Below, in pieces: positions 6,627 to 18,199 of a stretch of DNA of 64,000 bases. Under the pieces are notes generated by a model. The model was not told where the DNA came from, searched no databases, and saw only the letters and a program-made list of their open reading frames with translations. The stretch lies in NCBI RefSeq assembly GCF_003334335.1, contig NZ_QOWQ01000001.1; one strand, given 5' to 3'. This stretch comes from Escherichia coli (GTDB taxonomy: Bacteria; Pseudomonadota; Gammaproteobacteria; Enterobacterales; Enterobacteriaceae). The position numbers and the translations under genes were made by a program. Numbering within the stretch: position 1 is the stretch's first letter; the number at the start of each line of letters is the position of its first letter.

Positions 6627-9497
6627 TTATATTTTTTCCAGCGCAGTGAGTATTTTCTCCGGTGTGAAATGCCATTCGCGTAACCAGATGCCGCATGCAT
6701 CGTGAATTGCGGTAGCAATCGCCGGAGCTGCGCCATTTACACCGATTTCCGAGATCGATTTCGCCCCGAACGGGCCGACTTTATCGTCGCTCGGCACCAG
6801 CACAGCGCGGAAATCACGCGGAATGTCACCAATTTTCGGTGCGCCGTAACTGCGTAAATCACGCGTTAACGGGTGACCTTCGGCGTCATAAATGATCTCT
6901 TCGCTCATACTGTGGCCGATAGCACGCAGGGTGGCACCGTAGATTTGTCCCAACGCTAACTCTGGATTGACCGGTGTACCGCAGTCCAGCAAGGCGTAGA
7001 ATTTATCCAGGCGGATTTCACCCGTACGCGTGTTGACGGCAACTTCAGCGAAGTTTGCGCCATACGGGAAGGCGAAATCAGGCGTGATATAACTGCCAGT
7101 TCCCACCAGTGAACCAAAGCCGGTGCCGGTTTCGCCTTTATGGGCAATATCCCCGAAACTAACTTCGCCTTTCTTGCCGCGCACGACGCCCGGCGTTGCC
7201 AGTTGAACATCTGCCACTGGCTCACCCAACATTTGCGCGCCGTGGAACAGAATTTTCTCCCGTAGATTTTCCGCTGCCAAACGCGCCGCGTTACCCGAGA
7301 AGCAAGTACCGGACGAGGCATATGCGCCTTTATCAAACAACGCATGATCGGTATCACCGGAGATAACATGCACGTCCTGCGGTGGGCAGTGCAGCACTTC
7401 TGCTGCCAGTTTCGTCACTACAGTATCCAGACCAGTACCAATATCCGCACCGCCAGAATGAACGATAAAGGTGCCGTCCGATTCCAGTTTGATCATGCAG
7501 TTAGCCTGATCGATATCCGGGATACCCGATTTCTGCATGATAATGGCGACGCCGCGACCGATGTGCCAGTCACCATTTTGCGGTTTCGGTGACGACCATT
7601 GGATCATCTCGCGACCCTGACGCAGGATCTCTTCCAGTGCACAGCTGGCGGCGGAAGGAACGGAGGTCGGCGCTTTACCTTCACCGATTGCACCGAGAAT
7701 TTTCAGCTCTTGCCCTTCGTGTACCCGGTTACGTTCGATAATTTCCAGTTGGTCGATCTGTAACTGTTCAGCCAGTTCCGCTAATGCCATGGTGATAGCG
7801 AAGTTACCTTTCGGTGCGCCATAACCCTGATAAGCACCATTTGGGCAAATGTTGCTGTAGTAGGTGGTGACCTGGAAATCGACGTTATCGCACGGATATA
7901 ACGGCAGCGACAGCGCCGGTCCGTTACACGGTACGGTGAGTGAGTGGTTGCCGTAAGGGCCAGTGTTGGCGCGGAAATCCATCTTCACTGCCGTCAGGCG
8001 ACCATCTTTTTTCGCTCCCAGTTTGACGGTGACTTTCGCGACGTGACGAGAGGTGTTAGCAATAAACTCTTCTTCACGGGTGTAGCGGAACAGTACCGGA
8101 CGCCCGGTCACGCAGGTTGCCCAGGCGCACACTTCTTCCAGCAGGATGTCCTGTTTGGAACCAAAACCGCCGCCAACTCGCTCTTTAATGACATGAACTT
8201 TATGCTGTTTCATGCCCACGAGGCGCGCGACCTGGCGGCGTAAGTGCCATGGTACCTGGGTGGAGGCGTGGATAACCAGACGATCGCCGTCCATACGAGT
8301 AAAGCAGATATGTGTTTCAGTCGGGCACTGCTGCGCTTGCGTTGAGTTATAGGTTCGCTCAATGATCACATCGGCATCGGCAAAGCCTTTGTCCATATCG
8401 CCAATATGACCATGAATACTGGCGGCGATATTTTTGCGAGGGCGAGAACCGATCGGGAAGTTGATGATCATATGCTCGCCGCGCTGGGCTGCATGGCTGT
8501 TATCGTCTTCCAGAGTATCTGGCGCACCAGCAACATACACCACCGGTTCATCGTGCACGACAGGCGCATCTTCCGCCATTGCTTCGTCGATCGACATTAC
8601 CGGCTTAAGCACTTCATATTCAACGTCGATGAGCTTCAGTGCTTCGAGCGCAATTTCTTCACTTTCTGCGACGACCGCAGCAACACGATCGCCGACGTGA
8701 CGCATTTTCTTGCCGAACATACGGCGGTCAAGCGGTGACGGTTCCGGTGCGCTCTGACCACCCGGGGTATAGTAGATATCCGGGCAATTCAGGTGAGTAA
8801 TAACGTGAACGACGCCCGGTAAGGCTTCAGCTTTGCTGACATCCAGATGAGTAATCAGTGCGTGAGCGTGTGGGCTACGTAACATTTTAATGACGCAGGC
8901 GTCAGCCGTTACGCGGTCTTCAACATAGCAGGGTTTCGCCTGCACCATTTTCGCGGCATCAGTTTTAGGATAATGCTTACCAATGACTTCTAGGTCGTCA
9001 CGGAAAGTCGGAGCGATATCAATGGTGGCCTGCGGATTATTTTTACGTGCAACCGCCAGTTCAATGACCTGATAGTATTGCTGCCAGCCAGCATCGCGGC
9101 TGAACAAACCAGAAAGCGCGTCGTCGATCTCTTCGCGGGTAGGTGCGGCGATGCGATCGAGAAGATCGGTGATAATCAGAGCTGCAGCTGGATCGTTATA
9201 ACCAGACTGCACCACGCCAACATCAACCATTGCCTGTTGAACCAGACTTAACTCGTTCCATTTGCCCAGAGATTCTGCGGTACGAATATCTGCCTTCTCT
9301 AACTGTGCGGCAATAAGCAAGGACGCGTTAACGATATTACCGTTAAAGATTATTGCGTCAGAACCGGCAAACCCGAAACCATCATCACTGTTGCGTACAG
9401 AGTGCATTCCCATGTTAAACAACAGCTTTTGCACGTTTTCGCCTGGATTAACGGTTAGCTCCTGAGGCGCGCCATTTAAAGTAAAGTGGATGATCAT
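6627..9497 (-). CDS. xdhD: Molybdopterin hydroxylase large subunit with a fused N-terminal 2Fe-2S-like domain (putative hypoxanthine oxidase / selenate reductase Mo subunit)
   Basis: 956 aa. The central and C-terminal parts match the aldehyde oxidase / xanthine dehydrogenase a/b-hammerhead and Moco-binding domains (GGGFG motif). The sequence is recognised as XdhD (YgfN). Confidence 0.93.
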   Translation of the reverse strand: MIIHFTLNGAPQELTVNPGENVQKLLFNMGMHSVRNSDDGFGFAGSDAIIFNGNIVNASLLIAAQLEKADIRTAESLGKWNELSLVQQAMVDVGVVQSGYNDPAAALIITDLLDRIAAPTREEIDDALSGLFSRDAGWQQYYQVIELAVARKNNPQATIDIAPTFRDDLEVIGKHYPKTDAAKMVQAKPCYVEDRVTADACVIKMLRSPHAHALITHLDVSKAEALPGVVHVITHLNCPDIYYTPGGQSAPEPSPLDRRMFGKKMRHVGDRVAAVVAESEEIALEALKLIDVEYEVLKPVMSIDEAMAEDAPVVHDEPVVYVAGAPDTLEDDNSHAAQRGEHMIINFPIGSRPRKNIAASIHGHIGDMDKGFADADVIIERTYNSTQAQQCPTETHICFTRMDGDRLVIHASTQVPWHLRRQVARLVGMKQHKVHVIKERVGGGFGSKQDILLEEVCAWATCVTGRPVLFRYTREEEFIANTSRHVAKVTVKLGAKKDGRLTAVKMDFRANTGPYGNHSLTVPCNGPALSLPLYPCDNVDFQVTTYYSNICPNGAYQGYGAPKGNFAITMALAELAEQLQIDQLEIIERNRVHEGQELKILGAIGEGKAPTSVPSAASCALEEILRQGREMIQWSSPKPQNGDWHIGRGVAIIMQKSGIPDIDQANCMIKLESDGTFIVHSGGADIGTGLDTVVTKLAAEVLHCPPQDVHVISGDTDHALFDKGAYASSGTCFSGNAARLAAENLREKILFHGAQMLGEPVADVQLATPGVVRGKKGEVSFGDIAHKGETGTGFGSLVGTGSYITPDFAFPYGANFAEVAVNTRTGEIRLDKFYALLDCGTPVNPELALGQIYGATLRAIGHSMSEEIIYDAEGHPLTRDLRSYGAPKIGDIPRDFRAVLVPSDDKVGPFGAKSISEIGVNGAAPAIATAIHDACGIWLREWHFTPEKILTALEKI

Positions 9498-16573: not shown

Positions 16574-18199
16574 ATGAATATTTTCACAGAGGCTGCAAAA
16601 CTCGAAGAGCAAAATTGTCCGTTTGCTATGGCGCAAATTGTTGATAGCCGAGGCTCGACTCCCCGCCATTCTGCACAAATGTTAGTGCGCGCCGATGGTT
16701 CTATCGTCGGTACAATTGGTGGCGGAATGGTTGAGCGGAAGGTGATTGAAGAGTCGCTTCAGGCATTGCAGGAACGTAAGCCGCGATTATTCCATGGACG
16801 TATGGCTCGTAACGGTGCGGATGCTGTCGGGTCAGATTGTGGAGGTGCAATGTCAGTATTTATCAGCGTCCATGGTATGCGTCCACGTCTGGTGTTGATT
16901 GGCGCGGGGCATGTCAACCGGGCGATAGCCCAGAGTGCGGCGCTATTAGGATTTGATATTGCCGTTGCTGATATTTATCGCGAAAGCCTCAATCCTGAAC
17001 TATTCCCACCATCAACCACGCTTCTCCATGCTGAGTCGTTTGGTGCGGCAGTGGAAGCACTGGATATTCGCCCTGATAATTTTGTCCTGATTGCCACGAA
17101 TAATCAGGATCGTGAAGCCCTCGACAAACTCATTGAACAGCCCATTGCATGGTTGGGGTTGCTGGCAAGTCGTCGCAAGGTTCAGCTTTTCCTGCGTCAA
17201 TTGCGTGAGAAAGGCGTGGCTGAAGAACATATTGCCCGTTTACATGCGCCCGTTGGTTACAACATAGGTGCGGAAACGCCGCAGGAGATCGCCATCAGCG
17301 TGCTGGCAGAAATATTACAGGTGAAAAATAACGCGCCGGGTGGGCTGATGATGAAACCTTCTCATCCTTCCGGACACCAGCTGGTGGTGATTCGCGGTGC
17401 GGGAGATATCGCCAGTGGTGTGGCGCTACGTCTGTATCATGCGGGTTTTAAAGTGATCATGCTGGAAGTGGAAAAACCGACAGTGATTCGTTGTACCGTG
17501 GCGTTTGCCCAGGCCGTGTTCGATGGCGAAATGACGGTCGAAGGCGTCACTGCTCGCCTGGCAACCAGCTCTGCGGAAGCGATGAAACTTACCGAACGCG
17601 GATTCATTCCTGTGATGGTAGATCCCGCCTGTTCATTGCTTGATGAACTGAAACCGCTTTGCGTGGTGGACGCTATTCTGGCGAAACAGAATTTGGGAAC
17701 GCGGGCAGATATGGCACCAGTAACAATCGCGCTTGGGCCGGGCTTTACTGCTGGGAAGGATTGTCATGCGGTAATTGAAACAAATCGCGGGCACTGGCTC
17801 GGTCAGGTGATTTACTCTGGTTGTGCGCAGGAGAATACCGGTGTTCCTGGCAATATTATGGGGCATACCACCCGACGGGTGATCCGTGCTCCTGCTGCAG
17901 GCATTATGCGATCCAACGTGAAATTAGGCGATCTGGTGAAAGAGGGCGATGTGATTGCCTGGATTGGTGAGCATGAAATTAAAGCACCGTTGACGGGGAT
18001 GGTGCGTGGCTTGTTGAACGACGGCCTGGCAGTGGTTGGTGGTTTTAAAATTGGTGATATCGATCCTCGTGGTGAAACCGCTGATTTCACCAGCGTTTCT
18101 GATAAAGCCCGGGCGATTGGCGGCGGCGTACTTGAGGCGTTAATGATGTTGATGCATCAGGGCGTGAAAGCGACAAAAGAAGTGCTGGAAGTGGCTTAA
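16574..18199 (+). CDS. yqeB: XdhC/CoxI-family maturation protein with a YqeB-specific C-terminal domain
   Basis: 541 aa. The N-terminal half is XdhC/CoxI-like with Rossmann-like LVLIGAGHV. The sequence is recognised as YqeB. Confidence 0.9.
   Translation: MNIFTEAAKLEEQNCPFAMAQIVDSRGSTPRHSAQMLVRADGSIVGTIGGGMVERKVIEESLQALQERKPRLFHGRMARNGADAVGSDCGGAMSVFISVHGMRPRLVLIGAGHVNRAIAQSAALLGFDIAVADIYRESLNPELFPPSTTLLHAESFGAAVEALDIRPDNFVLIATNNQDREALDKLIEQPIAWLGLLASRRKVQLFLRQLREKGVAEEHIARLHAPVGYNIGAETPQEIAISVLAEILQVKNNAPGGLMMKPSHPSGHQLVVIRGAGDIASGVALRLYHAGFKVIMLEVEKPTVIRCTVAFAQAVFDGEMTVEGVTARLATSSAEAMKLTERGFIPVMVDPACSLLDELKPLCVVDAILAKQNLGTRADMAPVTIALGPGFTAGKDCHAVIETNRGHWLGQVIYSGCAQENTGVPGNIMGHTTRRVIRAPAAGIMRSNVKLGDLVKEGDVIAWIGEHEIKAPLTGMVRGLLNDGLAVVGGFKIGDIDPRGETADFTSVSDKARAIGGGVLEALMMLMHQGVKATKEVLEVA

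Follow-up and report, generated by a model that had tools for sequence, protein, structure and literature searches.

Labile terminal selenium on molybdenum is carried by the selenium-dependent molybdenum hydroxylases of purinolytic clostridia and by the nicotinate dehydrogenase of Eubacterium barkeri. Here we consider a locus of the Escherichia coli chromosome that encodes a relative of these enzymes, XdhD, together with ygfM, ssnA, ygfK, mocA, yqeC and yqeB; it occupies positions 6627–18199 of a 64,000-nucleotide stretch, below called the window. Very probably, this locus makes up the upstream half of the cluster by which E. coli degrades uric acid anaerobically and reductively via 2,8-dioxopurine, combined with the genes for cofactor maturation of its molybdenum enzyme. 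The locus is well known and its substrates were established in 2025, and the assembly of the selenium cofactor is the remaining gap, recognised as such by the field: insertion of a selenium ligand on the molybdenum cofactor (Moco) is the least understood route of selenium incorporation (Johnstone and Self).

The DOPDH enzyme (XdhAC) of Clostridium sporogenes catalyses the same reaction, the interconversion of urate and 2,8-dioxopurine, and belongs to the same family, and yqeB, yqeC and selD are found in its genome. It functions without a YgfM FAD subunit, whereas the E. coli enzyme uses NADH through YgfM. The C. sporogenes enzyme shows no activity when it is prepared from a selD mutant; such dependence on SelD has been demonstrated only for this clostridial enzyme, as opposed to E. 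coli XdhD. The latter matches both the large and the medium subunit of E. barkeri nicotinate dehydrogenase (3HRD; E 4e-44 and 7e-27, respectively). Unlike the hydroxylases of E. barkeri and the purinolytic clostridia, however, XdhD works physiologically in the reductive direction, that is, by dehydroxylation.

The logic of the pathway, reduction of the ring followed by its hydrolysis, is that of reductive pyrimidine degradation by PydA, a dihydropyrimidine dehydrogenase (DPD), and PydB, a dihydropyrimidinase; the Fe-S and FAD/NAD(P)H module of YgfK is also found in DPD. However, here the substrate is a purine, and SsnA belongs to the chlorohydrolase/deaminase-like branch of the amidohydrolases and not to the dihydropyrimidinases. 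As regards maturation, XdhC of Rhodobacter capsulatus, a Moco-binding chaperone for sulfuration and insertion, resembles residues 12–247 of YqeB, but YqeB has an added module of 270 residues that is confined to selD-positive genomes. The fold predicted for YqeC is common to the SIMIBI-class metallocentre-assembly NTPases UreG, HypB, CooC, ArsA/Get3 and ApbC.

Seven genes of the probable 2,8-dioxopurine locus

The genes of the locus are as follows.

6627–9497, minus strand: xdhD, subunit with fused 2Fe-2S and molybdopterin modules in the reductase that converts urate to 2,8-dioxopurine (DOPDH)
9494–10273, minus strand: ygfM, FAD subunit passing electrons from NADH to XdhD (TIGR03312; Pfam FAD_binding_5)
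10324–11652, minus strand: ssnA, amidohydrolase opening the pyrimidine ring of reduced 2,8-dioxopurine (TIGR03314, NF005540, Amidohydro_1)
11655–14753, minus strand: ygfK, Fe-S flavoprotein dearomatising 2,8-dioxopurine with NAD(P)H (TIGR03315, Fer4_20, Pyr_redox_2)
15075–15653, minus strand: mocA, CTP:molybdopterin cytidylyltransferase making the cytidine dinucleotide form of Moco (MCD) (TIGR03310, NTP_transf_3)
15756–16526, plus strand: yqeC, predicted SIMIBI-class P-loop NTPase and marker of the selenium-cofactor trait (TIGR03172)
16574–18199, plus strand: yqeB, XdhC-type Moco chaperone module (residues 12–247) fused to an EF2563/TIGR03309 module (271–526)

The list of open reading frames and the RefSeq annotation are concordant on these genes, and the content, order, strands and outer coordinates given in an earlier reading of the DNA from its letters (the sequence-only reading) agree with both. 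Each of the seven proteins far exceeds the NCBIfam cut-off of its own family (TIGR03313, TIGR03312, TIGR03314, TIGR03315, TIGR03310, TIGR03172 and TIGR03309, in the order of the list). All seven are identical to their K-12 MG1655 counterparts residue for residue, the DNA being 99.99% identical; K-12 has the same gene order, and nothing differs within the region. The published assays used proteins of exactly these sequences, so that the two loci are one and the same and not just homologous. Many strains match the region at 100%, and 5151 of the 5426 complete E. coli genomes carry 80% of it or more.

XdhD scores 2123 bits with TIGR03313 (cut-off 1102), and its Pfam domains are Fer2_2, Ald_Xan_dh_C, MoCoBD_1 and MoCoBD_2, the last three being those of a molybdopterin catalytic subunit of the xanthine dehydrogenase (XDH) family. 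Its description as the Moco subunit is correct for the Moco module and overlooks the fused 2Fe-2S module. The conserved catalytic glutamate is present (E917). XdhD and XdhA are 30% identical, and XdhD carries an 11-residue insertion, absent from XdhA, which contains E606 and has been tied to substrate orientation (Li et al., Life Metab 2025). A search of the PDB yielded no structure of XdhD; both XdhD and YgfK match only family relatives there. YgfK (TIGR03315, 1779 bits) is a sequence relative of the DPD/NfnA/GltD family. The locus has the composition of a 2,8-dioxopurine cluster: XdhD and YgfM are above the cut-offs of TIGR03313 and TIGR03312, and YgfK and SsnA are encoded next to them.

The sequence-only reading considered the substrate unassigned; in fact, the urate and 2,8-dioxopurine steps were published in 2025 in two independent solutions of the pathway (Liu et al., Nat Microbiol 2025 10:2291; Li et al., Life Metab 2025 4:loaf031). 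E. coli XdhD made from a plasmid of low copy number co-purifies with YgfM, and from uric acid the NADH-driven reaction forms 2,8-dioxopurine (isoxanthine) rather than xanthine (Li et al.). Neither YgfK nor SsnA acts singly on 2,8-dioxopurine, whereas both together with NAD(P)H yield ureidomethyl-hydantoin, which Li et al. read as an unfavourable reductive dearomatisation drawn onward by hydrolysis of the ring. The pathway was independently reconstituted with E. coli YgfK and SsnA (Liu et al.). The subsequent steps, by HyuA, YgeW with YqeA, YgeY and YgeX, lead to pyruvate, ammonia and ATP (Liu et al.; Li et al.; commentary). The metabolomics of operon mutants on urate, suggested earlier as a check, has also been published: E. 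coli ygfK and ssnA mutants are blocked and form no labelled acetate from labelled urate, and ygfK is induced by urate.

In the scheme established by these studies, electrons pass in XdhD–YgfM from NADH to FAD, two 2Fe-2S clusters and the molybdenum centre, where the C6 oxygen of urate is removed to give 2,8-dioxopurine. YgfK then reduces the pyrimidine ring of 2,8-dioxopurine with NAD(P)H, and immediate hydrolysis of the reduced ring by SsnA to ureidomethyl-hydantoin pulls the unfavourable reduction. The products of the neighbouring genes, HyuA, YgeW with YqeA, YgeY and YgeX, complete the conversion to pyruvate, ammonia and ATP.

Hydrolysis pulling the reduction fits the arrangement of the DNA, as ygfK and ssnA are separated by 2 nt. 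The ygfM and xdhD genes overlap by 4 nt (ATGA). The operon had been described as having only tight junctions, of 2–4 nt or overlapping; this applies to these two but not to the ssnA/ygfM junction, a 50-nt spacer holding an 11-bp hairpin. The embedded amidohydrolase had been taken as a sign of hydroxylation coupled to ring opening or deamination. Coupled ring opening has been confirmed, but the partner of SsnA is its translationally coupled neighbour, the flavin/Fe-S reductase YgfK, and not the molybdenum enzyme, and the coupled step is reductive dearomatisation rather than hydroxylation or deamination.

Candidate selenium cofactor and alternative readings

YqeB (TIGR03309), YqeC (TIGR03172) and YgfJ/MocA (TIGR03310) were described as accessory markers of selenium-dependent molybdenum hydroxylases (Haft and Self 2008). 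The sequence-only reading had stated this rightly for YqeB and YqeC, and the co-occurrence with selD in genomes with an orphan selD, which it had proposed to examine, is that paper's own result. Both YqeB and YqeC are encoded near xdhD and score well above the cut-offs (417 bits against 220 and 241 bits against 73, respectively); the TIGR03310 score of MocA is 214 bits, the cut-off being 186. The selD gene of E. coli is b1764, elsewhere on the chromosome (table in Haft and Self 2008), and the annotation of the window does not include it. YqeBC and SelD are carried by all surveyed urate-degrading gut strains. In Clostridioides difficile, deletion of yqeB has a phenotype, and selenium dependence has been shown there genetically; Li et al. 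list Se among the pathway cofactors. By analogy, a selenium ligand at the molybdenum centre is a candidate feature of E. coli XdhD.

The earlier assignment of YqeC as a P-loop protein is borne out by the GAGGKTS motif and the fold model. The protein is modelled as a SIMIBI-class NTPase with the P-loop, a Walker-B-like EADG and a conserved Cys/His motif. The invariant motifs are GAGGKTS, EADG and HEPC(139)IP; Cys139 in HEPCIP is the sole invariant cysteine among 26 YqeC sequences and adjoins an invariant histidine. Given this conservation and the model, Cys139 is a candidate selenium- or cofactor-handling residue. The PDB sequence search with YqeC gave nothing (best E 0.86).

YqeB had been called XdhC-like, which is true of residues 12–247, as they contain both XdhC Pfam domains (XdhC_CoxI and XdhC_C) and match the XdhC-family structures 2we7 and 3on5. 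The other half is a different module, and YqeB as a whole is not an XdhC equivalog (TIGR02964, 110.8 bits with the cut-off 161.6). The C-terminal half is modelled as a Rossmann-like domain together with a lipoyl-like barrel; the PDB sequence search with this half gave nothing. An internal duplication, with the C-terminal Rossmann-like domain as a diverged copy of XdhC_C, was considered and rejected: with trimmed alignments, HHalign aligned only a 32-column GxGxxG beta-alpha-beta motif, with the probability of 4.6%.

For the analysis of synteny, one genome per species was scanned and the top 80 loci by similarity were retained, covering at least seven phyla; 58 of these had full flanks. Within 10 kb of yqeB, yqeC is found in 52 of the 58 loci, ssnA in 35, ygfK in 34 and mocA in 34. 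In 54 of 63 loci, yqeC lies immediately upstream of yqeB on the same strand. The XdhC module is fused to YqeB in frame in 42 loci, is encoded by a separate gene in 17, and is not seen in the flank in a further 17.

These observations may be combined in a maturation scheme, which we put forward tentatively. MocA would make MCD for XdhD, and the XdhC module of YqeB would hold MCD while selenium derived from SelD selenophosphate replaces the terminal sulfur on molybdenum. Delivery or insertion would be assisted by YqeC, as an NTPase of chaperone type that is driven by nucleotide and has a single invariant cysteine. In a more specific version, which is more apt to fail than to hold, YqeC could be a chaperone similar to UreG, HypB and CooC that carries a non-metal, the selenophosphate-derived selenium, on Cys139 and hands it to MCD on the XdhC module, the Rossmann/lipoyl-like half of YqeB serving as a docking or swinging arm. 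E. coli XdhD would then be a Mo=Se enzyme, and nitrogen limitation would separately induce its maturation factor YqeB via the sigma-54 promoter inside yqeC.

Several points weigh against this interpretation. The deletion of yqeC in C. difficile had no phenotype, which makes a necessary role of YqeC doubtful; a lack of effect of both yqeB and yqeC mutations had been named as a refutation, and the C. difficile data are divided, with a phenotype for yqeB and none for yqeC. The literature search found no paper testing directly whether E. coli XdhD depends on selenium, nor did it find 75Se labelling of XdhD in yqeB or yqeC mutants. Li et al. obtained active enzyme from an ordinary overnight culture, and their methods never mention selenium. 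Moreover, the synteny set is biased towards the Gammaproteobacteria and close relatives, and the roles ascribed to the YqeB domains, Cys139 of YqeC and the YgeV dyad (see below) are drawn from fold and conservation. As to the pathway, the two groups differ on which ureido group is first cut by YgeW.

Some of these points have led us to consider that the pathway is right but E. coli XdhD has the sulfur form of the cofactor, YqeB and YqeC being general MCD chaperones or serving another enzyme. The fact that our literature search found no selenium test on the E. coli enzyme, its activity after standard culture, the C. difficile yqeC deletion, and the ordinary XdhC module that forms the N-terminal half of YqeB are all compatible with this. 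However, as rich media contain trace selenium, activity after standard culture does not speak against selenium; the clostridial orthologue requires SelD, C. difficile requires YqeB, and YqeBC accompany SelD in every urate-degrading gut strain surveyed. Hence we consider a sulfur-form XdhD unlikely.

Two further alternatives concern the reaction itself. The database name given by the sequence-only reading is still in use, as K-12 XdhD is annotated as a fused putative xanthine/hypoxanthine oxidase; with 30% identity to XdhA, the retained catalytic glutamate and the in vitro reversibility of the C. sporogenes enzyme, one could imagine an oxidative enzyme redundant with XdhABC. This is very improbable, given that the product formed from urate is the 2,8 isomer rather than xanthine, that the insertion with E606 distinguishes XdhD from XdhA, and that C. 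sporogenes has a separate XDH for hypoxanthine and xanthine. The least probable alternative is that the operon encodes a selenate reductase (ygfKLMN), so that selenium is a substrate and not a cofactor. It is reflected in the RefSeq name of YgfK, "putative selenate reductase subunit", and in the NCBIfam labels Se_sel_red_*, and goes back to the genetics of selenate reduction for this region (Bebien 2002, as cited by Haft and Self 2008), to which the sequence-only reading had properly referred. However, the purified enzymes use urate and 2,8-dioxopurine, the genes are induced by urate and their mutants are blocked in urate catabolism, and the genes around them encode a guanine deaminase, transporters for purines and enzymes that cleave ureides. 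The phenotype with selenate may be an indirect effect or reflect a side activity. Thus the reductive degradation of urate by a candidate selenium enzyme is the interpretation that we retain.

Regulatory sites and hairpins

The sites considered below, in part beyond the seven genes, are the following.

14826–14842, minus strand: sigma-54 −24/−12 element of ygfK (GTGGTGCGATTGTTGCT), exact match to site OS31 from chromatin immunoprecipitation sequencing (Bonocora 2015), kept in other genera
16157–16173, plus strand: sigma-54 promoter inside yqeC, driving yqeB, exact match to site IS34 (Bonocora 2015)
24642–24658, minus strand: sigma-54 element of ygeW, exact match to the published sequence, −12 element TTGTT
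30563–30579: sigma-54 element of xdhA, exact match to the published site
15011–15023, strand not applicable: palindromic dyad TATCATAATGATA, lying some 170 nt upstream of the sigma-54 element of ygfK
24831–24842, 24860–24871 and 24957–24968: three copies of the dyad in the ygeV–ygeW spacer
30677–30688 and 30699–30710: two dyads upstream of xdhA
12016–12027 of locus L001: copy of the dyad upstream of ygfT
10290–10314, minus strand: hairpin in the ssnA–ygfM spacer, 11-bp perfect stem, no U-tract
6602–6617, minus strand: GC-rich terminator-like hairpin from the pattern scan, 10 nt past the xdhD stop

The dyad has the form TATCA-N3-TGATA. Just three exact copies of the 12-mer CTCATATTGATA are present in 49.6 kb, and each stands about 100–200 bp upstream of a sigma-54 element (xdhA, ygeW, ygfT); with at most one mismatch, five matches are seen, while 0.24 are expected. 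In the window, the degenerate dyad WTCANNNTGATA shows an enrichment of about 7-fold, and none of 100 shuffles reached the observed count. The exact 12-mer is kept in eight genera, where it stands at −309 to −337 relative to the start of ygeW, and the ygfK dyad in six genera, at −253 to −274 relative to the start of ygfK. The position of the dyad upstream of ygeW and ygfK is kept in Escherichia, Citrobacter, Klebsiella, Atlantibacter, Pluralibacter, Trabulsiella and Raoultella; variants of the dyad are seen in Aeromonas, Serratia and Morganella. The dyad is a good candidate for the enhancer site of YgeV, which would activate the sigma-54 promoters from it; no defined YgeV site was found in the literature search. 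One more palindromic copy (ATCATCTTGATA / ATCAAGATGATA) lies inside the coding sequence of ygeX/dpaL, at 23015–23027, and may be either a chance occurrence or an internal regulatory site.

The promoter inside yqeC is a different case. Its mutation abolished the YqeB protein (Bonocora 2015). Nitrogen limitation induces this promoter. A connection of YqeB with nitrogen was not apparent to Bonocora et al.; it is now supplied by the pathway, as urate is a nitrogen-rich substrate. No dyad was found upstream of this promoter, and hence it probably answers to a different activator, possibly NtrC. The sigma-70 scan of 6300–18500 gave 13 sites with 12.1 expected, which makes it uninformative.

The hairpin between ssnA and ygfM has the predicted energy of −22.1 kcal/mol (z −3.3), and none of 200 shuffled sequences was equally stable. 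A GC-rich stem-loop is present in this spacer in nine genera with almost wholly different sequences; its equivalents are found in Citrobacter, Klebsiella, Atlantibacter, Pluralibacter, Trabulsiella, Serratia, Morganella and Aeromonas, whereas the Buttiauxella spacer contains no convincing stem-loop. Conservation of the structure without conservation of the sequence argues that the hairpin is functional. It is most likely an mRNA-stabilising or processing element setting the ratio of ygfK–ssnA to ygfM–xdhD. A classic intrinsic terminator was considered and rejected, as the pattern scan does not list the hairpin and the stem is not followed by a U-tract. The hairpin matches no Rfam family: at gathering thresholds, the scan of window positions 1–32000 yielded only tRNA-Gly (31756–31826). 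The hairpin at 6602–6617 is the probable end of the operon.

Surrounding genes and implications

The locus had been described as complete, but this is not so: selD is encoded elsewhere, and much of the pathway lies outside 6627–18199, in the following segments of the window.

1–6462: ygfT (truncated by the window edge at its 5' end), ygfS, ghxQ, guaD and xanQ, for formate-linked electron input, purine uptake and guanine deamination
18420–24551, minus strand: yqeA/arcC, hyuA, ygeY, ygeX/dpaL and ygeW, the downstream half of the pathway, identical or nearly so to K-12
25027–26805, plus strand: ygeV, sigma-54 enhancer-binding regulator of the cluster according to the annotation and the literature
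26845–30710, minus strand: xdhCBA with its upstream sites, xanthine dehydrogenase feeding urate

The functional unit thus spans from ygfT at the left edge of the window to the xdhA promoter near 30700. Annotations differ in the start codons of two of these genes, xdhA (28210–30507; 765 aa in the FORC 064 RefSeq annotation and 752 aa in K-12) and ygeW (23361–24551; 395 or 396 aa).

The differences between this strain and K-12 are confined to a later part of the window, in which the strain retains a larger share of the ETT2 type III secretion remnant and has no IS2 copy. The remnant occupies approximately 31940–45600 (44359–49573 of locus L001 and 1–9416 of locus L082), whereas K-12 has IS2 and the ygeN/O/P pseudogenes there. 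Its genes encoding YscQ-, EscU- and OrgA-like proteins, a LuxR-type regulator and a lytic transglycosylase are still frameshifted.

In two other loci, from E. coli strain ECGI0523 (L002) and Shigella flexneri (L014), tblastn with at least 50% coverage missed an intact ygfK. In the S. flexneri locus, xdhD and hyuA were missed as well at this coverage, and in the ECGI0523 locus the ssnA match stops about 240 nt short of the ssnA stop. Judging by these matches, the data suggest that the urate pathway has been pseudogenised in some lineages.

Gut bacteria with this locus remove urate, which is of interest for gout and hyperuricaemia, and serum urate in mice fell with an engineered E. coli Nissle strain that overexpresses the locus. 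This medical value has already been realised in the literature, and nothing is added here on the substrate. What is new is the predicted fold of YqeC with its invariant cysteine, the model of the YqeB C-terminal half, the dyad upstream of the sigma-54 elements, and the hairpin between ssnA and ygfM seen across genera. The fold assignments, the YqeC cysteine and the candidate YgeV operator provide concrete residues and bases for mutation. As E. coli carries XdhD, MocA, YqeB, YqeC and SelD, it is a good tractable host in which to address the placement of selenium on the molybdenum cofactor.

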